A stretch of 32,000 nt of DNA from Candidatus Saccharimonadota bacterium (GCA_000503875.1 CP006913.1:1140001-1172000); one strand, 5' to 3'; positions 13,525 to 26,912 are shown, counted from the first letter of the stretch. Made by a program: numbers and translations. The notes: generated by a model from the letters alone, not told the origin.

Positions 13525-14706
13525 ATGAAAAATATGCGAAATATTACTAAGCAAAAATTTGATACCAAGATATTTTTTTCTTTTCATAATTTTTTTTCTC
13601 AACATATTTTCAAAAACGATATTGTAGCGGTTGCTGTTTCTGGCGGTCCAGATAGCATGTTTTTGAGTTGCTTACTTTATGATTTTTTTGTTTCTCAAAA
13701 ATATAATACAAAAAATCTGATTTTTATTCATCTCAATCACGGCGTAAGAACTGAAAGTATCGAAGAAGCGAAAAATATTAAACAACGATTTACATGAACA
13801 TCATTGGAAATTATTACCAGACCAAAAACACTCAAAGCAACAGAAAATGATCTTAGAAAACGAAGGTATCAAAAGTTTTTGGATACGATGATAAAGCATT
13901 GAGCAAACAAAATTTTTCTTGGACATCATTTTGATGATCGTGTAGAAACATCACTTTTAAACTTGCTTCGTGGATGTGGAGTAGATGGATTTATAGGAAT
14001 CAAACCAATCGAACACCATCATCTTTTACATGGAAAATTAGTTGTGAGACCGTTATTATCTCTTCGTAAAACAGAAATTCTTGATACATGTAAACAACAA
14101 AATATCCCTTATGTCCAAGATATTTCCAATCAAGATATTTCCGTAAGTCAGAGAAATTATTTGAGAAATGAAATTATTCCCAAGCTTTTTTTACAAAAAT
14201 GATTTGAAAAATTATTTCAAAAACGATACCAAAAATATGATAGCCAATCTATAGAAAACCTCTTACAACCAATAACAATAAGTCTTTATCGAAAAGCAAA
14301 ATCAGCATATTATTTGATAAAAAATAGAAAAGAATGTAGCGCCCAAGATCTTCTTCGTATCTTTAAACAACTACATGCAAGCGCTGGAATTACGACCAAA
14401 ACCTTACAAGAATTTCTGCCTTTTGTACAAACAGCAAACAAAGGTCGGAAATCAATTCAAGGCGTAATAGTTATGATTGCCCATGGAAAAGTATATTTCT
14501 TCGTTGCCTCAGAACGTTTTCGAGAAAAAACTATTGATAACAAAACTCAAATTACTACCCTTCATTATAGAGGGAAAACGCGGAATAAATATTGTATTAC
14601 CGAAAAAATTCCTATTTTCCGAAGGAACTTTATTCCTGTTGTTATAAAAGGAAATAAAATTATTTCTTGGGACAAAAAATGATGGGAAAACACGACCATT
14701 TTTTAA
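13525..14706 (+). CDS. tilS: tRNA(Ile)-lysidine synthase
   Basis: PP-loop VAVAVSGGPDSMFL, then IHLNHGVR and LGHHFDDRVETSLLNLLRG. Track ORFs 13525.., 13963.. and 14314.. share one frame and are joined by 4 Gly-TGAs. Stop is TAA 14704-14706. Confidence 0.9.
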
Positions 14707-14722
14707 TCTTTTTTACTACTTC

Positions 14723-15217
14723 ATGCGAGAATATATACAACCTATTGTATTCCAAATTACGTCTACACGATCATATATAGTTATTACTATTTCAGAAAAA
14801 CGAGGACGAACGCCACGAGTCGTAGAATATATTTTTGTTATTGGTGTTTTGTATCTTATAGCATTATTCTTACTCCACAAAGTCTATCGTTTTTTTGTCC
14901 ATTCGGTTTTAAAACAAAAAGCGAATTTTTTCTTGGCATGCGATACTGTTTTATATCAATTTCAATTAGAGAGTAACGAAAATCAACAGGATATATCTTG
15001 GATTAAAGAATTATTAAAAAAAGGATCGTATGAACAATCCTATAAATTATTTTTGGAAAAAACATCATTACTTCCTTTGGAAGCAGCAGAACACTTCAAA
15101 AGAAAACTTGAGAAAACTCACACCGCATACATCAATACATCCAAAAGAAAAACTTTTTGTGGGGTATTTTTGGTACTAGTTACTTTGGGCGTTTATAAGT
15201 TATTTCTAGAAAATTAA
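14723..15217 (+). CDS. Hypothetical membrane protein (164 aa)
   Basis: Intact ORF with two hydrophobic helices (IFVIGVLYLIALFLL and the C-terminal FCGVFLVLVTLGVY). Confidence 0.55.
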   Translation: MREYIQPIVFQITSTRSYIVITISEKRGRTPRVVEYIFVIGVLYLIALFLLHKVYRFFVHSVLKQKANFFLACDTVLYQFQLESNENQQDISWIKELLKKGSYEQSYKLFLEKTSLLPLEAAEHFKRKLEKTHTAYINTSKRKTFCGVFLVLVTLGVYKLFLEN

Positions 15218-15453
15218 TTTAATAAAATAGGTGGTCTTTTTTTGGATTGCTTTCTATCAAATTGTTCTAATTCTTCAGAAATCTGATATTCATTATGATG
15301 CTTTTTTTCTGGTTTTTTTGTTCAAACTCCTATTGCACGTCAAAGCTCTTCAAGTCCCATAGAAAGGCTGAGTCCTTTTCTTGTTCCAATAGTATTTGCC
15401 AGGCTTTCTTTTTGCTTTTCAGTTTGTTGGCCTAATTGATTATTTTCGCTCAT
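15214..15453 (-). CDS. Small hypothetical protein (79 aa), host-coded
   Basis: MSENNQLGQQTEKQKESLANTIGTRKGLSLSMGLEELGRAIGVGTKKPEKK... includes two Gly-TGAs, so it uses the host code. Its stop overlaps the stop of the convergent 14723..15217 gene. Confidence 0.5.
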
Positions 15454-15512: not shown

Positions 15513-15546
15513 AAAAAAAAGAGTTCCAGTAAAAAACTGGAACTCT
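15513..15546 (-). terminator. Strong rho-independent terminator of the T9SS-type operon
   Basis: On the minus strand: AGAGTTCCAGT, TTTTT loop, ACTGGAACTCT, then T8. The stem is 11 bp and lies 27 nt downstream of the TAA of the 453-aa gene. Confidence 0.8.
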
Positions 15547-15573
15547 TTAATCTATTATTTCTTCTGGTACTAG

Positions 15574-16935
15574 TTATTTACTACGCCAGATTTCTTGGCC
15601 ATCTAATTTCAACCAAAGAACTTCTTTGTTTTCGTATTCGTTCTTCTTCCAAAAGATTGCATAGCGTTTTTTGTCTGCACGAAGTAATGCAATAAAAGGC
15701 ATACTTCTTTCATCTTCAGGAAGACATCCCTTTTTAATGATTTTAGCCTGTTTGGTTAAGGCACTATCTAACTCGGCATAAACATAATCAATAACGAATT
15801 TATTAAGAGGAGATTCTCCTTCTTTTTCAATTACATCCATGCGGATGTTTTCATTATCTATACATTTAAAACGATTCTTAAAAAGAGGAACACTTGTCCA
15901 ATATCTTTGGTATGCACCAAGTTGAATTTCTCCCCTGAAAGGAACAAGTTCTAATTTTTCTAATTCAATTAAAAGTTGTTCTCTAGCGGTGATTGTATCA
16001 ATAGGTGTAGGTATAACTTGTCTCGTGAGCGTATCCAATGGAATACTATCCGATTTAGGAATTGTATCCAATACAGGAACACTGTCCAGTTGTATTGAAT
16101 CAAGTTTCGGAATAAATACAGGTTTTGTTAAGCTGTAAATGTCGTATCCACCTGATCCACCAGGACGATCAGATGCAAAATAATATAGGGAGTCAGTTTG
16201 TTTCCTAACATCTATAGTATTGCATCCAGAGATGTTAATAGGATAAGGAAGCTTTTGTGGAGCTTGCCATTCCCCATCAACAAAGAGAGATCGATATACA
16301 CAAAACCATCCATCCCGGTTGGAATTAAAATATAACTCTTTTCCGTTTGGAGTAATCCAAACACCATTCTCATCAAATGATGAATTGAGTATCTCTACAG
16401 GAACTGGTTTTTCTTTTCCTGTTTGAAAGTAGATGTCATAATTACCACTACGATTGCTCGTAAAATAAAGAGAATCTCCTTTTGTAGCTATACTATTTTC
16501 ATCATAATCGGAATTGATGTAAGGAACTTCTTGTAATGATTCTATGCTAATTCCTTGTTTCCTTGGAGCCATAAACAACTTTCCTTGGTCATTGAAATAA
16601 CCTCGATAAAAAAACCAATACTTATTAGACATACCAACCAATGCTGAATTTGCATCGATATTGGCACTGCCATAACTAAGTTTCTTTACCTTACCAAAGC
16701 TAGTATCTGCCATCTGTGTATAATACACCTTCTCTGTATATTCCAGAAGTCTATCTTCACGATTATTTCTTCGTTTAGAAGTAAACAACAACATAGAATC
16801 TACAGGAAAAGGTGAATACTCTGCAGCAACCGAATTGATGTCTAGATTTTTCATAACCCAGGTTGAATCCGGTTGCTGAGCAAACCCCAAAAAAGAACAA
16901 GAAACAGAATAAATAATTATCAGTAGCTTTTTCAT
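15574..16935 (-). CDS. PD40/TolB-like beta-propeller repeat protein with an unassigned C-terminal domain (third gene of the T9SS cargo triad)
   Basis: Signal peptide MKKLLIIIYSVSCSFLGFAQQ. Repeated PD40-type motifs are LLFTSKRRN, LYFTSNRSGNYDIY, LYFNSNRDGWFCVY and YYFASDRPGGSGGYDIY. The C-terminal ~130 aa begins FRGEIQLGAYQRY. No TGA. Stop is TAA. Confidence 0.8.
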   Translation of the reverse strand: MKKLLIIIYSVSCSFLGFAQQPDSTWVMKNLDINSVAAEYSPFPVDSMLLFTSKRRNNREDRLLEYTEKVYYTQMADTSFGKVKKLSYGSANIDANSALVGMSNKYWFFYRGYFNDQGKLFMAPRKQGISIESLQEVPYINSDYDENSIATKGDSLYFTSNRSGNYDIYFQTGKEKPVPVEILNSSFDENGVWITPNGKELYFNSNRDGWFCVYRSLFVDGEWQAPQKLPYPINISGCNTIDVRKQTDSLYYFASDRPGGSGGYDIYSLTKPVFIPKLDSIQLDSVPVLDTIPKSDSIPLDTLTRQVIPTPIDTITAREQLLIELEKLELVPFRGEIQLGAYQRYWTSVPLFKNRFKCIDNENIRMDVIEKEGESPLNKFVIDYVYAELDSALTKQAKIIKKGCLPEDERSMPFIALLRADKKRYAIFWKKNEYENKEVLWLKLDGQEIWRSK

Positions 16936-16941
16936 ACGCTA

Positions 16942-17823
16942 CTATTTAGAGGATTTCGAATAAGGAAGCTTTAGCATTAAGACAACCTCATGTTTGGTAA
17001 ACGAATAACCATATACGTCACCAAATGAATAAGAGCCGCAATACCCAAATGATATATTTTGGACATTAATTCCAAAACCACCTTTTATCGTATTTGCAGA
17101 TGCATATCCTATGCTAAAAAGAATATCCTTATTGAGAATAAATTTTCCAGATACCCCATATTGTACGCTACTGAAAGTTTGTGTGATAACATATCCACTT
17201 CCCTCCAAGAACAATACATTTTCCATCAAAGTAAATCTGTACATACCACTAGCAGCATACGTAATATTAGTTTTGTTTTCAAAACTACTTACCATCCAAT
17301 CAGTTTGACTGGGAAGTAAATTATACGCAGCGATACCAACATAGTATCTATCTACTTGATTAAGTGCTAAACCGAAATTGGCATTAAACCAGTTTCCAGA
17401 TTCGGCACCCTGGAGAATAGGATCATCTATATCGTGTACTTCTACACGATCTCTCATTAATTTTAATTGGTTAAATCCGCCACTTAATCCAAACGAAAGT
17501 TTGGAACCACCAACAGGTACATGGTAAATAAAAGTAGCCTCAGCAGAAAGGTTTTGTAGTACGCCACCTTCTTGCGAAGCAATCTTAAATCCACCTGCAA
17601 CCCGTTGATTATTAAACGGTGAACTCCCCCAAAACATAAAGGATTTCGGATGATAATCATAGGCACCCATTTCTGTTTGATAGAGCGTACCCAATTTTAC
17701 CATTTCATTGTATCCGCCCAAACTTGGATTGGCTAAATATGGGTCATAGCCAGCCCCTAATTGAGCGAACCCTTTCGTTGATATAAGCACTACCAACAAA
17801 AGGAAAATTCTGATTTTTTTCAT
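16942..17823 (-). CDS. PorP/SprF-family type IX secretion system membrane protein
   Basis: 293 aa with signal peptide MKKIRIFLLLVVLISTKGFAQ. It has the N-terminal YLANPSLGGY motif, alternating beta-strand-like sequence, and a position immediately downstream of a type-B CTD cargo gene. No TGA. Stop is TAG. Confidence 0.8.
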   Translation of the reverse strand: MKKIRIFLLLVVLISTKGFAQLGAGYDPYLANPSLGGYNEMVKLGTLYQTEMGAYDYHPKSFMFWGSSPFNNQRVAGGFKIASQEGGVLQNLSAEATFIYHVPVGGSKLSFGLSGGFNQLKLMRDRVEVHDIDDPILQGAESGNWFNANFGLALNQVDRYYVGIAAYNLLPSQTDWMVSSFENKTNITYAASGMYRFTLMENVLFLEGSGYVITQTFSSVQYGVSGKFILNKDILFSIGYASANTIKGGFGINVQNISFGYCGSYSFGDVYGYSFTKHEVVLMLKLPYSKSSK

Positions 17824-17842
17824 TGTAATATATTTTTGTTGG

Positions 17843-20401
17843 TTAGTACAATATAGTTATTGTTTTCCAATATGGTTTTTCAGAACCATCTTGTTTAACA
17901 ACTTTTAAGTATAAATAAACAAGTGATCCGGAAGCAACAAGATTACCATTTTTATTCTTGGCATCCCAAATGGTCTGAGAAGGATCTGTTGATGTAAAGA
18001 TTTCGCCATCTTTGTTTTGGATAACAAGTACTATTGAGATAGCATTGTTACACAAAGAACTAAAATCCAATACGTCATTATCTCCATCTCCATTTGGAGT
18101 AACAAGATTGGGAATAGCTACACCATTTCCTGCCATAATTTCGACAGAATCTGTTGTAACACAACCATTATTATCGGTTATTTGCACATAATGCCGACCA
18201 GCTGCCAAAGAATCCGCTTCCTGAGTTGTTTGAACGGGAATACCACTCCATAAGTAAGTATGCGGTGGGGTAAAATGATCCACATATTGTACTAAGGCCG
18301 TACCATCCTCGCATTCAGGACAAGAAGTATTTTCAACTCTGAAATAAGTTCTAGGATGATCAGGTTGTTCAATAATAACCTTTTCCATAGAGATACATCC
18401 ATTATCATCGGTAACCGTTACATCATAAGACCCTGCCTTCAGTCTATCAATAATAAAACTGTTTGCGGGAGTTGTAATAGTAACCGTAGTATCAACACCT
18501 AAATAATTAGTTCCATCAAGTACTAATGTACTATTTGGTCCAGAGGTACCACCTGATACATTCACTTCAACACTTCCTCGTCCATCATAGCATAGGCTAT
18601 GGGTTGGGTTAATAGTTACTACCAAAGGGAGTGGTTGTACAAACGTAATAGTGGTATCAAAGTCACAAGTTCCATTTGAAATACGAACCAGATGATCACC
18701 AATAGGCATATCAACAAAGCTTGTAGTGTCATCAAATAACACATTTTGCGTAACTCCACCTACAGTAATATCTAGAGGAAATGCTTCCAAGTTATGAACT
18801 CTAATTATCCCTAATTCGTCGTTACACGAGATAGGAGTATTTACAAATTCAAATTGGAAATTTGCTGGATTAGTAAGTGTCCAGGTTGTGTCAAAAACAC
18901 AGCCAACACTGTCCTTAAGATGTAAGTCATAAATTCCACTACTAAGATTTGTTATAGCATTGGTATTGTTATTCATAAGTACGCCATCTTTTTTCCAGAC
19001 AAAAGAGTTTCCTCCATTACCTCCAATAACTGTTGTCGTGATACTAGCATTGGTGTATTCATAACAACCTACAGGAACAACAACATCTGTTACATGAAGT
19101 CGGGCTGGTTCATTTATTGTTACCGCTGGCGGAATAAATGTACATCCGTTTTCATCAGTAATTGTCAATGTATACGTTCCAGCAGCAAGTCCAGTAATAG
19201 AAGCAGTCGTTTGACCACTATCCCAAGAATAACTTAATTGACCAGTTCCTCCACTAAAATTGGCAGTAATAGAGCCATCATTAGCTTGGAAACAAGTCAG
19301 ATCTTTTTTAATTAGTTCTCCTTGAATAGGTGAATCAGGTTCCTTTATAATTACACTTTGATCCAAAGCACATCCTGTAGAATCTTCTACATGAATAGTA
19401 TATCTACCAGCAAATAAGTCAGTAACTGCTGCATTATTGCTAGAGAATCCACTCGGACCAGTAATTGTGTAAACAAAACCACTATAACTTCCTTCTGCAA
19501 CTGCGTTAATACGTCCCGTATTATCTCCATAACACAAAATATTTCTTTGTGTGTAGGAAATTTTTATTGGTGTAAGAACACTGTCAACCAACCAAGAATG
19601 TCGAAAACCTTTATTATCGTTTGTTACGACTTTAAAGATATTTCTCCCTGGATAAACTTCAGAAGAAAAACTTGCTACAGTATCTGCTACACTTGTTACA
19701 TACAGTGGACCAGGAAGTAATTCAACAATAGTAACCGTGTCTTCCGGGAACTGCACTTGTGCAGGTAAATTAGCAGGAACTAAAATTGGTCTTACATCAC
19801 TAATTGGCGCTGTTGCATCATAGCAAGCAGTAGAATCAATTTCGTAAGTCGTAGTAATTCCAGATAATTCATTAACAACAACAGTATCATTTCTTTGACA
19901 ACCGTTTATATCAGTAAGCGTAATAAAATACGTTCCTGAATAAAGATTATCGAAAACATTAGCTGTTTGTGTTGTTTCAATAGTAGTAGTACTATCAATC
20001 AAATTATAGGTAAACCATCCGGTTCCACCTCCAGCTGTAATAGTAATCCTCCCATTTGGCAAAGGCCAATTGGAATTAGGAACTATCGCATATGCTGCAG
20101 TGATCGCAGGAGGATTATCCAGCGTATAAGTAAATGTTTCTGTTGCCAAAAGGGCATTAGTAACAGTTACGGAATACAAAGCAGCATCCAAACCAGAAGC
20201 GACTTTCCCTGAAAGAGTTGGTATAACTATACCATTTCGTTCCCATACATACGTATAAGGAGGATTAATCAATGTAGTAGTAACGGTTATTTCACCGTCC
20301 TTACCATCATGACACTTAATGTTTTCTGTGGCAGTGATCTGTGAAAAACCAGACAGCCAAAAAAACAAAAGTACCAACGTTACAATAATTTTTTGTCTCA
20401 T
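17843..20401 (-). CDS. SprB-repeat cell-surface adhesin with a T9SS type-B sorting (gliding-motility-associated) C-terminal domain
   Basis: Signal peptide MRQKIIVTLVLLFFWLSGFSQ. About 8 repeats of ~75 aa follow the pattern C..(D/N)G.I......GG....Y.W......GL.AG.Y...(T/V)D.NGC. The C-terminus is IPNLVTPNGDGDNDVLDF...WDAKNKNGNLVASGSLVYLYLKV. No TGA in 852 codons. Stop is TAA. Confidence 0.9.
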   Translation of the reverse strand: MRQKIIVTLVLLFFWLSGFSQITATENIKCHDGKDGEITVTTTLINPPYTYVWERNGIVIPTLSGKVASGLDAALYSVTVTNALLATETFTYTLDNPPAITAAYAIVPNSNWPLPNGRITITAGGGTGWFTYNLIDSTTTIETTQTANVFDNLYSGTYFITLTDINGCQRNDTVVVNELSGITTTYEIDSTACYDATAPISDVRPILVPANLPAQVQFPEDTVTIVELLPGPLYVTSVADTVASFSSEVYPGRNIFKVVTNDNKGFRHSWLVDSVLTPIKISYTQRNILCYGDNTGRINAVAEGSYSGFVYTITGPSGFSSNNAAVTDLFAGRYTIHVEDSTGCALDQSVIIKEPDSPIQGELIKKDLTCFQANDGSITANFSGGTGQLSYSWDSGQTTASITGLAAGTYTLTITDENGCTFIPPAVTINEPARLHVTDVVVPVGCYEYTNASITTTVIGGNGGNSFVWKKDGVLMNNNTNAITNLSSGIYDLHLKDSVGCVFDTTWTLTNPANFQFEFVNTPISCNDELGIIRVHNLEAFPLDITVGGVTQNVLFDDTTSFVDMPIGDHLVRISNGTCDFDTTITFVQPLPLVVTINPTHSLCYDGRGSVEVNVSGGTSGPNSTLVLDGTNYLGVDTTVTITTPANSFIIDRLKAGSYDVTVTDDNGCISMEKVIIEQPDHPRTYFRVENTSCPECEDGTALVQYVDHFTPPHTYLWSGIPVQTTQEADSLAAGRHYVQITDNNGCVTTDSVEIMAGNGVAIPNLVTPNGDGDNDVLDFSSLCNNAISIVLVIQNKDGEIFTSTDPSQTIWDAKNKNGNLVASGSLVYLYLKVVKQDGSEKPYWKTITILY

Positions 20402-20571
20402 AAGTGGTTAATTTAATTTATATTTAATTTTTGTTTAATTTCTTTGTTAATTACCTAGCTAGATATACCCGAAAAATAAGCATTCCAGCCATCATAGTAT
20501 ATGTAGCTATTTGGCGATAAAAGTCAATACAATAATGAGAATAAATTATATAAAACAAGAAACAAATCAGA

Positions 20572-20599
20572 TTGATTTTTTTGTAAAATTTCCTATATT
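20572..20599 (+). promoter_or_regulatory. Candidate sigma70-type promoter of dnaJ
   Basis: TTGATT (20572-20577), N16, TATATT (20594-20599), 45 nt upstream of the ATG. Confidence 0.45.
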
Positions 20600-20624
20600 A
20601 TCACCTCGACAAAAAAAGTGCTAT
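20598..20624 (+). promoter_or_regulatory. Degenerate CIRCE-like inverted repeat (possible HrcA operator)
   Basis: TTATCACCT-N9-AAGTGCTAT compared with consensus TTAGCACTC-N9-GAGTGCTAA gives 13/18 matches. It overlaps the putative -10 box of dnaJ. Confidence 0.35.
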
Positions 20625-20643
20625 TTACTATTAACGTATAGAT

Positions 20644-21693
20644 ATGGATTTTGATGTAAAAAAGGATTATTACAAAATATTAGATATTCCAGAAACGGCC
20701 ACAGCGGAAGACGCAAAGAAAGCATTCAAAAAGCTTGCAGTAAAACATCACCCAGACCGCTGATGAGATAAAGCAAAATTTCAAGAGATCAACGAAGCTT
20801 ATCAAACCTTAGGAGATGAAAAAAAGAAAGCTCAATACGATGCTTATCGTAGTGGTGGCGGAGGACAAGGATGATATGATTTTGGCGGATTTGGCGGTTG
20901 ATGACAAGGATGATTTGATTTCTGAGGAGTAGATCTCGGAGATATTTTTGGAAATATGTTTGGAGGTGGATTTGGAGGACAACAAACAAGAGCAGAATCA
21001 TTTAGTGGAGAAGATATCAAAGTTGCTATAGAAATTACTTTTGAAGAATGATTTTTGGGAGTAACCAAAAAGGTCGCTTACAATAGAAAAATAAAAATGT
21101 CTGGTATTGATGAAAAAAATTGTAGCACTTGTAAAGGTCAATGAAGAGTTTCAAGAACAGTTCAAACACCTTTTGGAATGATGCAAACTCAAACTGTTTG
21201 TCCAGATTGTGGAGGTGTTGGTCACCAATATACCAAGGATGGAAAGACTATTAAATCTCCATTTGAAAATCACAAAGAAACGATTGAAGTTAAAATTCCA
21301 GAAGGAATCGATGATGGCGTTTATATAAAATTTACTGGAAAAGGACACCAATGATTAAATGGTTATGATGGTGATTTATATATCAAAATAAATATTCAGA
21401 CTTCTCCTATATATGAAAGAAGATCAGATAATTTATATATCAAAGTTCCTGTAACCATTTTTGATCTTGTGCTTGGAGCAGAAAAACAAATCACTCATCC
21501 AGAAGGAAAACTAAAAGTAAAAATCCCAAAAGCTACTCAGGTAGGAGATATGGTCAAAATATCTGGAAAATGATTTGGTAAGTGATGAATCTTTGGTAAA
21601 AAATGAGATCTTTATCTGATTCCAAAAGTAGACATCCCAAAAAAATTAAGCAAAGAAGAAGAAAAATTGTGGAAAGAATTAGCTTCGATATAG
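20644..21693 (+). CDS. dnaJ: Molecular chaperone DnaJ
   Basis: J-domain [35 protein letters not shown], with GG encoded TGA TGA at 20761-20766. A G/F-rich region is partly TGA-encoded. The zinc finger is CSTCKGQGRV...CPDCGGVG. There are 14 Gly-TGAs. Stop is TAG 21691-21693. Confidence 0.95.
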
Positions 21694-21777: not shown

Positions 21778-22335
21778 ATGCTCATAACCATAACTTGAAA
21801 AGCTTGAAGCGGAAAATCTACTGCAGCTAAGGCACTTGCAGAGAGGCTTTGATACGAATATATTTCTATATGAAGCATGAGAAGAATTGTTGCAGAGAAA
21901 ATGTGATTAAATATTTTGGAATTTAATGAGCTTGGCGAACGCCCAGAAAATCAAAAAGAATTTGATTTGAAATACGAAGAATATCAAAAAAGTTTAGATC
22001 CAACATCCAAAATTGTTTTGGAAAGTAGATTGTGATTTTTTTGTCAGCCAAAATCTTTTAAAATTTTTTTAACGGTTGATGAAGAATCTGCAGCAAAAAG
22101 AATATTTAATAATAAAAGATCTACTGATGATTATACATCTTGGGAAGAAGTTTTAGAAAAAACAAAAATAAGAGATAAAGAAGATGTAGAAAGATATAAA
22201 GAATTATATAATGTAGATTATAGTGATTTCAAAAATTATGATCTAATATTGGATACAACAATTAAAAATGTTGATGAAACAGTCGACGAAATTATAGAGC
22301 CATTTAATAAATACAAGAAAAACCAGCAAAAATAA
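21778..22335 (+). CDS. cmk: Cytidylate kinase, archaeal-type / (d)CMP kinase-like P-loop kinase
   Basis: MLITITGKAGSGKSTAAKALAERLGYEYISIGSMRRIVAEKMGLNILEFNELGE..., with P-loop glycines encoded by TGA at 21796 and 21805. 185 aa. Stop is TAA 22333-22335. Confidence 0.75.
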
Positions 22336-25469: not shown

Positions 25470-26912
25470 ATGAAGAAAACAACAGAAAAGGACTCTTTGG
25501 TTTCTCAGATCAAAGCGATTCCAAATCAAGTTAAAATTTTTGTTTTGGGATTGTTTGTGGTAGTTTTGGCTCTTGTTAGTGTTTTGCCTAACTTAAATTA
25601 TAAATTCCTTCAAGGAAGCATTTTAAATATAAAAACAGAATCAAAAGTTAATGGTTATGGTTATTGATATGGTTATGAACCTCCATATGTTTTTGTAGAT
25701 GATGATTGATATGGATATGGTTATCAAGTAGATGAAAACACTAAAAAATATATTAGAATTAGAAATATTGAATTTTATTTTGATAATATGTCTGATATAT
25801 TAACTGTAAAAGTAATATATAGTCCAAGATATGAAGGCACTATGATTGTAGAACCATCTATTTATCTTGTTGAGCCAGCACAAATAAATTATTGAACCAC
25901 AAATCCATCATATATTGGGAAATGTTTGGTTTTGGAAAACAATGATATTTGTATTATGAAACAACAATTTACTATAAATAGAACATTGCATGGAAATCAA
26001 ATAAAAGTAACACCAGTATTTAAAACAAGAGTTACTGCAGTATCAAATAATGATCAAAGAGCTTTATGACAAATAATAATCGATAATGCCAGCACAAATA
26101 CAACTTGTCAAACACCAGAAAACATATTAGCGTGTTCTTTGCATTTAACATCTTGTCCAAGTGAATGTAGACCAGCTCAATGTCAAACACCAGAAAATGT
26201 ATTAGCGTGTTCTTTGGGGTTAGATTCTTGTCCACAAGAATGTATATATAATTGAAATACTACTTTAACAGGGAATGTTTGTCAAACACCAGAAAATGTA
26301 TTAGCATGTTCTTTGCATTTAGCATCTTGTCCACAAGAATGTAGACCAGCCCAATGTCAAATACCAGAGAATGTATTAGCGTGTTCTTTAGGGTTAGATT
26401 CTTGTCCACAAGAATGTATATATGGAGCAACTTCAGGAAACACAACATCATACTGGACTAACTGGCTCAATAGAGATGGTCCATCTGGAAACGGAGATTA
26501 TGAAACATATGCTGATTTTATGCCAGTTCCTTGTAAAGATGGATATCAACCAATTGATGTAAAATTTATTCGTGCTGACGAAAGTGAAACAACACAAACT
26601 ATTCATTTTTCATCGAAAGGTGGGTATTGTTTAAATAGTGAAAATTCAAAATGATGTGCAGATTATAAAGTGAAATTCTTTTGTGAAAAAACAGGAAGCA
26701 AACCAACGATTATTGAAAAGCCAAAAGAAACACCAAGAGTTATTGAACAACCAAAGGTTGTAGAAACACCGATAGTTATAGAAAAGCCAAGAACTGTAAA
26801 AGAAGCAATAACTATAGAAGCTAAACCAACACCAAAGACAAAAGAAACGATTGAAACTAAAACTACAGCAGAATCAACAATTTTAGATATTTTCAAAGAT
26901 CTTTTAAAATAA
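25470..26912 (+). CDS. Membrane-anchored surface protein: GY repeats, 4 Cys-rich repeats, WxxW (mucin-2-type) domain, Pro/Lys/Glu-rich tail
   Basis: 480 aa. The signal anchor is VKIFVLGLFVVVLALVSVL. GYGYGYGY...GYGYGY follows. CQTPENVLACSL.L.SCP.EC occurs four times. YWTNWLNRDGPSGNGDYETYADFMPVPCKDGYQPIDVKF...GGYCLNSENSKGCADYKVKFFC (26451-26684) fits the WxxW domain pattern. The tail reads KPTIIEKPKETPRVIEQPKVVETPIVIEKPR. Stop is TAA 26910-26912. Confidence 0.85.
26106..26423 (+). repeat. In-frame tandem duplication: two ~144-bp super-repeats (period 174 bp), each made of two 69-75-bp Cys-rich units
   Basis: Units lie at 26106-26180, 26181-26249, 26280-26354 and 26355-26423. 26106-26249 and 26280-26423 differ at only about ten positions. 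Confidence 0.9.

Follow-up and report, generated by a model that had tools for sequence, protein, structure and literature searches.

A type-B cargo, a barrel and a PD40 protein in one operon

Positions 15574-20401 (- strand) of the window, the whole 32,000-nucleotide stretch of DNA analysed here, hold three ORFs with exactly the boundaries drawn by an earlier sequence-only reading. That reading had claimed an intact triad of type-B cargo, PorP and PD40 proteins in a CPR lineage, and the ORFs and their profile matches agree with it (Table 1). Parts of the T9SS type (cargo, carrier, anchor) are considered Bacteroidota/FCB-specific and outer-membrane dependent, and the cassette has the make-up of a three-gene surface-adhesin module, of cargo, barrel-shaped carrier and wall anchor, which is normally found only in Bacteroidota. 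The host uses genetic code 25, with TGA on invariant glycines of the Walker A motif GxSGGGKT, of LSGGQ, and of the DnaJ HPDRGG motif and G/F region, and in the flanks within the window TGA makes up 171 of the 488 Gly codons. An identical PorP protein is annotated in 'candidate division SR1 bacterium RAAC1_SR1_1' as well. GC content is slightly higher in the cassette (0.36 vs ~0.30), and no tRNA genes were found in the window as integration marks. By inspection, all three proteins begin with Sec-type signal peptides ending in GF[AS]Q, in keeping with the complete signal peptides claimed earlier.

Table 1. Positions of the cassette genes, their signals and the bordering genes in the window
Feature	Position	Strand	Description
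Native 79-aa gene	15214..15453	-	2 in-frame TGA; bounds the TGA-free island on this side
Intrinsic-terminator-like hairpin and T-run	15518..15548	-	13 pairs; 26 nt past the stop of the last cassette gene
PD40-propeller protein gene	15574..16935	-	453 aa; C-terminal domain possibly SPOR-like
C-terminal domain of the 453-aa PD40 protein	15577..15984	-	aa 318-453
PorP/SprF-like carrier gene	16942..17823	-	293 aa; predicted 14-strand FadL-type beta-barrel
Cargo gene	17843..20401	-	852 aa; Sec signal peptide, SprB/Ig-like repeats, type-B sorting domain
Candidate cassette promoter block	20486..20535	-	from the alignment of 13 upstream regions
Native dnaJ	20644..21693	+	divergent; TGA in 14/54 Gly codons; other boundary of the island

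With Pfam/NCBIfam profiles, the cargo matched SprB repeats at 87.7 bits. Its type-B CTD, described earlier as intact, was recovered by one model and missed by another: CHU_C (PF13585) scored 36.2 bits at aa 762-838, above the cut-off of 27, but the type-B model TIGR04131 scored 26.3 bits, below its cut-off of 35. Cargo orthologues in SR1 loci are 38-88% identical with a dN/dS of ~0.3, and the CTD was not seen to be more strongly conserved than the rest of the protein. The PorP gene starts 19 nt downstream of the cargo gene, and the cognate porP/sprF-like gene is thus adjacent. This resembles SprB-SprF of Flavobacterium johnsoniae, where SprB repeats and a type-B CTD are likewise followed immediately downstream by a gene of the PorP/SprF family, although the SR1 cargo is far from the 669 kDa of SprB.

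The 293-aa protein scored 120.2 bits with PorP_SprF (PF11751; cut-off 22.3) and 121.9 bits with TIGR03519 (cut-off 90.55), and in an exhaustive search its identity to typical PorP/SprF-family representatives, none of them with a taxon name, was 24-30%. The sequence-only reading had proposed a structure prediction, beta-barrel or not, for this protein. The AF2 model gave a barrel of 14 strands (pLDDT 77, pTM 0.75) which Foldseek placed as FadL-like, with FadL and OmpG at E ~1e-8 and the best TM, 0.60, to PorV (chain 6h3i_F). PorP dN/dS was 0.09-0.22. SprF carries a Cys-X-Cys motif in its periplasmic C-tail, coupling it to the gliding track/GldK (Liu 2025, PMC12635249). Unlike SprF, the SR1 PorP ends in ...LKLPYSKSSK without Cys, and the motif is absent from all CPR alleles, which fits a static anchor. 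A further difference from SprB-SprF is the PorE-like gene of the cassette, in the model of Gorasia et al. (2022, PMC9143113) the mark of a non-mobile cargo.

The 453-aa protein carries PD40 repeats, and the PorE and CHU_0125-OmpA models match it in part, over their propeller regions. The PorE model NF052230 gave 31.8 bits against a cut-off of 600, the match covering the propeller part only, and no OmpA_C domain was found with Pfam/NCBIfam profiles; the likeness to PorE is thus one of role alone. Its C-terminal domain, with a nearly invariant Cys358, an invariant Cys404 and a QLGAY motif, was modelled by AF2 with a pLDDT of 92. Foldseek returned nothing significant for this domain. The most probable matches were SPOR domains (E 0.15-0.38, query-normalised TM 0.33-0.42), of RlpA, DedD, CwlC and DamX with match probabilities of 0.95, 0.94, 0.90 and 0.87 at E > 0.1, and there was no Pfam SPOR match. 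Judged from the model, the fold may be SPOR-like and the domain is a candidate peptidoglycan binder, which would replace the OmpA_C of PorE. It is conserved in putative Bacteroidota homologues, and proteins such as P0320 (source name '[Bacteroidota bacterium]') have the same C-terminal domain as the SR1 protein. The PD40 protein dN/dS was 0.17-0.31.

Together, the three genes make up a single conserved transcription unit, which has a promoter-like block and a terminator of its own. The sigma-70-like upstream block, ATTGTATTGACTTTT ... TATGATGGCTG, contains a -35-like TTGACT at 20527-20522 and TATGAT at 20496-20491, and the element TTGACTTTT is also found upstream of the cassette in a standard-code CPR lineage. 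A strict sigma-70 scan did not report the block because its spacing is atypical in SR1. At the other end, the strong terminator claimed by the sequence-only reading was matched by the terminator-like hairpin and T-run, and a matching hairpin sequence also lies 3' of the cassette in another SR1 locus (L022). Shine-Dalgarno sequences were absent from native and cassette genes alike. The putative Bacteroidota relative L019 has the Bacteroidota-type TAnnTTTG upstream instead of TTGACT; expression in a Bacteroidota host is disfavoured, since the CPR copies have TTGACT-type blocks and not TAnnTTTG.

Distribution, age and exchange of alleles

At least 10 SR1 lineages with independent assemblies carry the cassette in synteny, between dnaJ and tilS (loci L002-L012, L022 and L023), and in other SR1 loci it is followed by orthologues of the 79-aa native gene. 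A standard-code Patescibacteria lineage (L015, L020) carries it at a different conserved site. Across the cassette dS is 0.2-1.8, similar to the flanks, and dN/dS is 0.09-0.34 overall, indicating purifying selection. In one locus, L003, the PD40 gene is seemingly frameshifted; either this gene may be dispensable or the L003 assembly may be erroneous. An exhaustive search among 1.84 billion representative proteins found no close Bacteroidota donor, the best putative Bacteroidota relatives being 35-40% identical. The putative Bacteroidota triads L017, L018 and L019 contain these three genes, arranged alike, but these triads and the PD40 homologues differ from the SR1 cassette in identity (28-42%) and in their GC content of 41-47%. 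No cassette relatives were found in IMG/VR that would suggest carriage by phages.

These data refute the suggestion that the cassette is inert and very recent, given its synteny in at least 10 lineages, the flank-like dS, the purifying selection and the lack of a close donor. A chimeric contig was likewise ruled out, since more than 10 independent assemblies show these same junctions. The zero TGA count and slightly higher GC of the cassette would fit an inert transfer of very recent date, or a chimeric assembly, but with these recurring junctions, deep divergence, dN/dS well below 1 and no close donor we consider such an origin extremely improbable. The cassette has long belonged to the genomes of a group of SR1 (Absconditabacteria) bacteria, where it is conserved and under selection.

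It is also exchanged. The flanks of loci L009 and L012 are 94-98% identical while their PorP proteins are 44% identical, which demonstrates allelic replacement. Very divergent cassette alleles thus replace one another between otherwise close genomes, and the cassette is kept both vertically and recombinationally at one chromosomal site. Most of the allele diversity lies in SR1 contexts, and the closest standard-code contig allele to any SR1 allele is at most 66% identical. A phylogeny of the standard-code lineage as donor or recipient gave a star-like tree.

Absence of in-frame TGA from the cassette

The total and maintained lack of in-frame TGA is the most unusual feature of the cassette, and goes beyond what the sequence-only reading had noticed. 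Over nine SR1 alleles, TGA was used for none of 1000 Gly codons vs 493 of 1130 (44%) in the flanking genes; in the window, the counts were 0/68 in the cargo gene, 0/34 in the PorP gene and 0/24 in the PD40 gene. As far as in-frame use goes, TGA occurs in the cassette at stop positions only, the stops being TAA, TAG, or TGA with TAA/TAG 4-7 codons on. Lacking in-frame TGA, the cassette reads alike in both genetic codes. About 100 conserved Gly columns per pair of alleles showed no TGA/GGN switches, against switches in 25-55% of the columns of the flanks. Even between the window allele and that of L003, which come from sister genomes and have diverged along with their flanks, there were 0 switches in 97 columns vs 13 in 53 in dnaJ. 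The cassette genes were the only ones with one TGA or none among 86 genes sampled from SR1 loci and 57 from other code-25 contigs. The pattern is shared with code-25-associated phages (2023, PMC10746230), which likewise lack in-frame TGA and rely on other stops or nearby back-up stops, but the SR1 cassette differs from them as a chromosomal, syntenic cellular operon without IMG/VR relatives, which has stayed TGA-free through long divergence inside code-25 genomes.

Several simple causes were rejected. A strand or mutational bias was ruled out by the heavy TGA use of other - strand genes, avoidance of the TGA trinucleotide in DNA by the common out-of-frame TGA in the cassette, and a general effect on secreted proteins by the TGA use of native signal-peptide proteins. 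High expression was weakened as a cause, since TGA is used in EF-Tu and ribosomal-protein genes of code-25 contigs. If the lack of TGA were the mere effect of very high expression, with translational selection for GGN codons, one would point to the conserved promoter block and strong terminator of the operon and to the reduced TGA of EF-Tu in some code-25 contigs, with examples of 3/37 and 5/37. However, EF-Tu still has TGA for 8-55% of its Gly codons in code-25 contigs, and ribosomal-protein genes of other code-25 contigs for 28-75%; among 120 native genes sampled, every one has at least two TGA; in its other codon families the cassette is much like the flanks; and weak codon selection could not be expected to give so absolute a result as 0 of 1000 codons over three genes that are presumably expressed unequally. 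We therefore consider this explanation unlikely.

An explanation to which we give equally little credence is that repeated imports from standard-code carriers, in a source-sink manner, and not selection inside SR1, keep the cassette free of TGA. The standard-code Patescibacteria lineage does hold the cassette, horizontal replacement of alleles occurs at the SR1 locus, and TGA is the stop at several SR1 gene ends. Against this stand the sister alleles of the window and L003, without a switch in spite of co-divergence with their flanks, the lack of any standard-code allele nearer than 66% to an SR1 allele, and the allele diversity lying mostly in SR1 contexts. The codon pattern calls for selection that acts within SR1 on decoding. 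We tentatively propose, as a possible but somewhat doubtful reading, that the operon is a code-neutral chromosomal island, in which selection in code-25 cells purges in-frame TGA so that the module can still be decoded when UGA does not mean glycine. RelE-type toxins cut stop codons in the ribosomal A site, and one candidate cause could be that the operon has to be produced at times when the decoding of UGA is blocked or under attack, for instance by RF2 of a standard-code phage or by such toxins. In that case it would be the one surface structure that the cell can still build.

Envelope and proposed function

A single-chain 14-strand barrel normally requires an outer membrane and BAM, and to our knowledge neither is known in CPR, which counts against the wall-tethered adhesin proposed below. 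The closed SR1 genome, which carries this exact PorP, is reported to lack lipid A/LPS genes (among them lpxC and kdsA) and to have a sortase, and its description mentions no T9SS core gene (Kantor 2013, PMC3812714); Vampirococcus, a relative of SR1, has a Gram-positive-type wall (PMC8080830). We looked for T9SS core genes (gldK/L/M/N, sprA/sov, porV/U) across the 32-kb window and the flanks (~20 kb) of 10 loci and found none, and a literature search gave nothing relevant that links a T9SS part to Patescibacteria or Absconditabacteria. The missing genes, the sortase and the wall type argue against an unrecognised outer layer in this clade, or a complete or minimal T9SS-like export route elsewhere in the genome, with the triad working as in Bacteroidota. 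The proteins do keep features suited to a diderm, namely the barrel fold, the intact type-B domain and the two conserved Cys of the PD40 C-terminal domain, and selection has kept them long; nevertheless, we regard this as improbable, slightly more so than the two explanations disfavoured above for the lack of TGA.

The nearest known arrangement is the PorE-PorP-PG1035 complex of Porphyromonas gingivalis, and in F. johnsoniae porP-like/porE-like pairs lie beside type-B cargo genes (Gorasia et al. 2022, PMC9143113). The SR1 cassette has the same gene adjacency and, by analogy, would have the same three roles, a surface protein with type-B CTD, a 14-strand FadL-family barrel, and a propeller partner tying the barrel to peptidoglycan. 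In contrast to that complex, the SR1 host is a CPR bacterium without known outer membrane, LPS or T9SS core, and unlike PorE the PD40 partner lacks TPR, CRD and OmpA_C and has a different, possibly SPOR-like C-terminal domain instead. The matching domain content and order support a wall-tethered adhesin. We propose that the locus is a domesticated Bacteroidota module of type-B cargo, PorP-like carrier and PorE-like wall anchor which serves as a variable surface adhesin of the SR1 clade, a role suggested by the homology and the pattern of allelic diversity, and which we hold to be plausible, if a little short of probable. All three proteins would exit the cell through Sec, and in an envelope without outer membrane the T9SS translocon would not be needed. 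The PD40 protein, tied to peptidoglycan by its possibly SPOR-like domain, would hold the PorP barrel, which would in turn hold the C-terminal domain of the SprB-repeat protein, leaving the exposed SprB repeats to bind a host cell, a prey cell or another surface. Thus among the three readings offered earlier the repurposed adhesin is the best supported, while the inert and very recent cassette has fallen.

Alternatively, the proteins exported by SR1 could work at or within a diderm host's outer membrane, the barrel inserting there and presenting the adhesin, or plugging into the T9SS of a Bacteroidota host. In a cell without outer membrane, the host outer membrane would be the only lipid target of the barrel; one mat study found a correlation of Absconditabacteria coverage with Bacteroidetes, and SR1 relatives are epibiotic predators (PMC8080830). 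However, where hosts are known for cultured or observed relatives, they are Gammaproteobacteria (PMC8080830), and a wall-binding partner fits self-anchoring better. Overall, this alternative seems to us rather unlikely; we know of nothing to support the insertion of such barrels into a membrane from outside.

Selection of the triad in two CPR lineages means either that it is a self-contained anchoring unit which does without the translocon, or that the CPR envelope differs from the current view, and both options are testable. An operon long free of the reassigned codon in a recoded genome is also a natural experiment on code change, gene flow and gene expression, effects for which our literature search found discussion for phages only. 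Finally, the cassette marks a hypervariable surface-protein site at which genomes exchange alleles, and such a locus is a strong candidate for a host-recognition determinant of the uncultured epibiotic SR1 bacteria.

Genetic code of the host and composition of the cassette

Most of the 32-kb window breaks into short ORFs when translated in the standard bacterial code, and reading TGA as sense gives long genes throughout. TGA encodes invariant glycines in the Walker A (GxSGGGKT) and LSGGQ motifs of an ABC protein and, in DnaJ, in HPDRGG and the Gly/Phe region, therefore the host uses code 25, in which TGA is read as glycine. The window sequence is that of contig DPJE01000001.1 (GCA_003543185.1), and the 293-aa PorP is identical to AHB41861.1 from 'candidate division SR1 bacterium RAAC1_SR1_1'.

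The sequence-only reading had proposed an intact triad of a type-B T9SS cargo, its PorP/SprF partner and a PD40 protein, and we observed the three ORFs exactly where it had placed them, which confirms the observation. PorP scored above both curated PorP/SprF cut-offs, signal peptides were found at the N-termini of all three proteins, and the predicted terminator corresponds to a 13-pair hairpin with a T-run 3' of the last cassette gene. For the type-B CTD claimed for the cargo, the C-terminal Pfam CHU_C match was above cut-off and TIGR04131 fell under its own. The 453-aa protein carries PD40 repeats and matched the PorE and CHU_0125-OmpA models partially, over their propeller parts. The signal-peptide ending seen in the cassette proteins was not shown by the native secreted proteins of the window; the Gln which follows it is present in every PorP allele, and the pattern is that of the 'Q-rule' of Bacteroidetes for substrates of signal peptidase I. 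Elsewhere the window encodes another secreted protein, in which a Mucin2_WxxW domain and four Cys-rich repeats (CQTPENVLACSL.L.SCPQEC) precede a tail rich in Pro, Lys, Glu and Thr; the SR1 locus L009 has a relative.

Positions of the cassette and of other features in the window
Feature	Position	Strand	Remarks
Three-gene cassette	15574-20401	-	
Cargo, 852 aa	17843-20401	-	SprB repeats; CHU_C (type-B) at C-terminus
PorP, 293 aa	16942-17823	-	
PD40 protein, 453 aa	15574-16935	-	
Signal peptides of cassette proteins	20339-20401, 17761-17823, 16873-16935	-	End GF[AS], then Gln
tilS	13525-14706		
164-aa ORF	14723-15217	+	Adjoins cassette; no family match
Promoter-like TTGATT-N16-TATATT	20572-20599		
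Conserved element TATCACCTCGACAAAAAAAGTGCTAT	20596-20625		Upstream of dnaJ
cmk	21778-22335		
Mucin2_WxxW secreted protein	25470-26912	+	

Distribution, age and allele replacement

Contigs encoding identical or similar PorP proteins were located, and the arrangement dnaJ, the three genes in the same order, then tilS was found to recur in many independent assemblies: L002 (GCA_028693445.1), L003 (JGI 3300076802), L004-L006 (GCA_964424095.1 and two ENA assemblies), L009 (GCA_964620295.1), L007, L008, L010, L011, L012, L022, L023 and L024. The flanks are TGA-rich at all these SR1 loci, and such identical gene order with TGA-rich flanks in independent assemblies ruled out a chimeric contig. The PD40 gene of L003 (L003:10900-12300) matched in two reading frames, owing either to a frameshift, which would make it a possible pseudogene, or to an indel in the assembly; in L004 (L004:11126-11226) the gene looks truncated because of a run of N. 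Codon-wise comparison of orthologues, translated in code 25, gave dN/dS values of 0.09-0.22 (PorP), 0.17-0.31 (PD40 protein) and about 0.3 (cargo), and synonymous divergence of the cassette was 0.2-1.8 (Nei-Gojobori, near saturation for some pairs), the same range as in flanking genes (0.3-3). The low dN/dS and flank-like dS therefore indicate that selection has preserved these genes in SR1 genomes over a long period of divergence. Together with the synteny across SR1 assemblies, this refuted the earlier suggestion that the cassette might be very recent and inert.

Relatives outside SR1 were sought exhaustively, without profiles, among 1.84 billion representative proteins from a library lacking taxon names; the search gave only five matches at E <= 1e-30 and no close Bacteroidota donor; typical PorP/SprF-family representatives share 24-30% identity with the window PorP. 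The same triad occurs at 28-40% identity in an intermediate group of putative Bacteroidota loci (L017-L019; GC 41-47%, standard code), whose PD40 proteins have the same C-terminal domain as that of the window, and a full-length PD40 homologue with 40% identity carries the source name '[Bacteroidota bacterium]'. A GTDB genome scan with two peptide patterns missed the window's own genome and so sets only a minimum for the distribution; it returned an unexpected second CPR carrier, L015 (DAOMZR010000001.1; 499,849 bp). In-frame TGA is absent from the genes around this cassette, where TGA is used as stop. The L015 UvrA is 96% and 85% identical to 'Patescibacteria group bacterium' proteins and 74% to a Falkowbacteria protein, and its UvrC is only 33-37% identical to SR1 UvrC; by the names of its best matches, L015 is assigned to Patescibacteria. 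Its cassette lies between rlmH on one side and an IF-2B-family/aldolase/PNP cluster on the other, and a second species of the lineage (L020, L021) has the same context. The L015 proteins are 42-66% identical to SR1 alleles, within the spread among SR1 alleles themselves. Neighbour-joining trees separated a CPR clade from L017/L019 with 100% support, and are compatible with the standard-code CPR lineage as donor, recipient or sister of the SR1 copies.

Among SR1 loci the cassette alleles are far more divergent than the flanking genes, which are fairly close (DnaJ 83-96%, PDDEXK 81-93% identity). The loci L009 and L012 are 98% identical in cmk and 94% in dnaJ, yet only 44% in PorP, and in trees the PorP and PD40 proteins of L022 cluster with different alleles. 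Comparison of the cargo from the window, L007, L009 and L015 revealed a long form of about 850 aa (845-859) and a short form of about 525 aa (520-535); the short form can be aligned with each half of the long form, as if about 330 aa had been duplicated internally in the latter. Allele replacement at a fixed site would be a mark of exposed surface determinants under diversifying selection. Against L002-L012, the two housekeeping genes adjoining the cassette, cmk and tilS, both fall into deeply divergent allele classes among otherwise close genomes: the two cmk classes are about 30% identical, and the window tilS is 55% identical to most others, which are mutually 74-87% identical; the cassette neighbourhood looks like a recombination hot spot.

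Exclusion of in-frame TGA

None of the 126 cassette glycine codons in the window is TGA, compared with 35% for its remaining genes (P about 2e-24), and over nine SR1-context alleles the count was 0/1000, with 493/1130 (44%) in the flanks; outside the cassette the host genome uses TGA for about 25-60% of glycines. We rejected the explanation that this is a leftover of recent arrival, as the absence holds in every lineage. At conserved glycine columns of dnaJ, the window's allele switches between TGA and GGN at 28 of 51 relative to L005 and at 13 of 53 relative to L003, the closest pair; with L003, hyp438 switches at 7 of 23, and in the cassette 0 of about 97-100 columns per pair do so. Repeated import is an unlikely cause for the window/L003 pair, because sister alleles sit in sister genomes. 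Avoidance of TGA as a trinucleotide was also dismissed: TGA is plentiful in both alternative frames (8 and 42 in the SprB-repeat cargo gene, 3 and 9 in PorP, 4 and 18 in PD40) and the reading frame alone is protected. A strand effect fails since other minus-strand genes use TGA, and a secreted-protein effect since native secreted proteins do so too. Most other codon families showed no difference between cassette and flanks.

High expression was addressed by searching metagenome contigs for an EF-Tu P-loop with TGA at the second glycine, which gave 34 loci, from code-25 organisms that may lie outside the cassette's clade. In four such contigs TGA made up 22/40, 17/35, 5/37 and 3/37 of EF-Tu glycine codons, and 75%, 67%, 32% and 28% of glycines in the adjoining ribosomal-protein genes, which, unlike the EF-Tu query site, were not chosen for TGA use. 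One further locus, L040 (Ga0228668_1001014; GC 0.43), has only one TGA in its EF-Tu gene (25-1212), on the invariant glycine of the P-loop, and its other genes are free of in-frame TGA (rpoB 0/93 Gly); this TGA may, among other possibilities, reflect a sequencing error or a pseudogene.

Among 86 long ORFs of SR1 loci, the 23 cassette genes and no others contained at most one TGA, and such ORFs numbered 0/57 in other code-25 contigs. The few TGA codons of the cassette are all at stop positions: PorP stop and PD40 start overlap as ATGA in L002, L003, L009, L010, L022 and L023, and likewise in L015 and L020, the TGA being a genuine stop in these two; the L022 PD40 gene has TGA at the homologous stop position (...WQSK-TGA). 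A TAA or TAG is always found only a few codons further on. With no in-frame TGA and these back-up stops, the operon therefore reads identically in code 25 and in code 11, the standard code with TGA as stop. The nearest precedent found is in phages of these phyla that lack TGA and are compatible with both codes (Liu 2023, PMC10746230); no cassette relatives were found in IMG/VR. The exclusion of in-frame TGA is complete and is maintained by selection. The adjoining 164-aa ORF also lacks TGA, with only five glycine codons, and its orthologues in other SR1 loci use TGA at 3/6, 5/7 and 5/5; it is therefore a native gene outside the TGA-free island.

Transcription, structure and a proposed surface complex

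A block common to all SR1 alleles lies 5' of the cargo gene (ATTGTATTGACTTTT ... TATGATGGCTG). The standard-code CPR lineage has TTGACTTTT and, 17-18 nt on, an extended -10-like TGTTAGCAT or TGTTATGAT, and L019 has instead a Bacteroidota-type TAnnTTTG motif near the start. The CPR copies appear to be wired for sigma-70-type transcription, which argues against intended expression inside a Bacteroidota host. The SR1 block went unreported in a strict consensus scan owing to the atypical spacing of its hexamers; its conservation makes it a candidate promoter. Shine-Dalgarno motifs are absent from native and cassette genes alike. Upstream alignment also showed TATCACCTCGACAAAAAAAGTGCTAT strongly conserved in all SR1 loci, adjoining the promoter-like sequence before dnaJ, where it resembles a degenerate CIRCE/HrcA operator.

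For PorP a beta-barrel is predicted by a model with 14 strands (pLDDT 77, pTM 0.75), which matched FadL and OmpG (E about 1e-8) and gave its best TM-score, 0.60, against PorV in the T9SS translocon structure. In the PD40 protein the C-terminal domain was modelled at pLDDT 92 and had no significant structural match; its highest-probability matches were SPOR peptidoglycan-binding domains (E 0.15-0.38), so a SPOR-like fold is only a lead.

In P. gingivalis a PorE-PorP-PG1035 complex is described and in F. johnsoniae an SprF-SprB complex; six of ten porP-like genes of the latter adjoin porE-like genes, and PorP-PorE-like pairs were proposed to anchor non-mobile type-B cargo to the wall (Gorasia et al., PMC9143113). 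SprF of F. johnsoniae is coupled to the gliding track by a Cys-X-Cys tail (Liu et al., PMC12635249), whereas the window PorP has no such tail. We propose that the three cassette proteins would be exported by Sec and would assemble into a static, wall-tethered adhesin complex; in an envelope that lacks an outer membrane they would need no translocon through one. The absence of such a membrane is supported by the report that an SR1 genome lacks lpxC and kdsA and has a sortase (Kantor et al., PMC3812714) and by the wall of Vampirococcus, described as a Gram-positive structure (PMC8080830). No T9SS core, BamA or LPS genes were found within the window or the approximately 20-kb flanks of related loci. 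The weak point of such a Sec-only adhesin is a barrel without a known membrane to sit in. The cassette is a long-domesticated variant of the type-B cargo/PorP/PorE-like module, carried in two CPR lineages, and, from homology and allelic diversity, very probably a variable surface adhesin.
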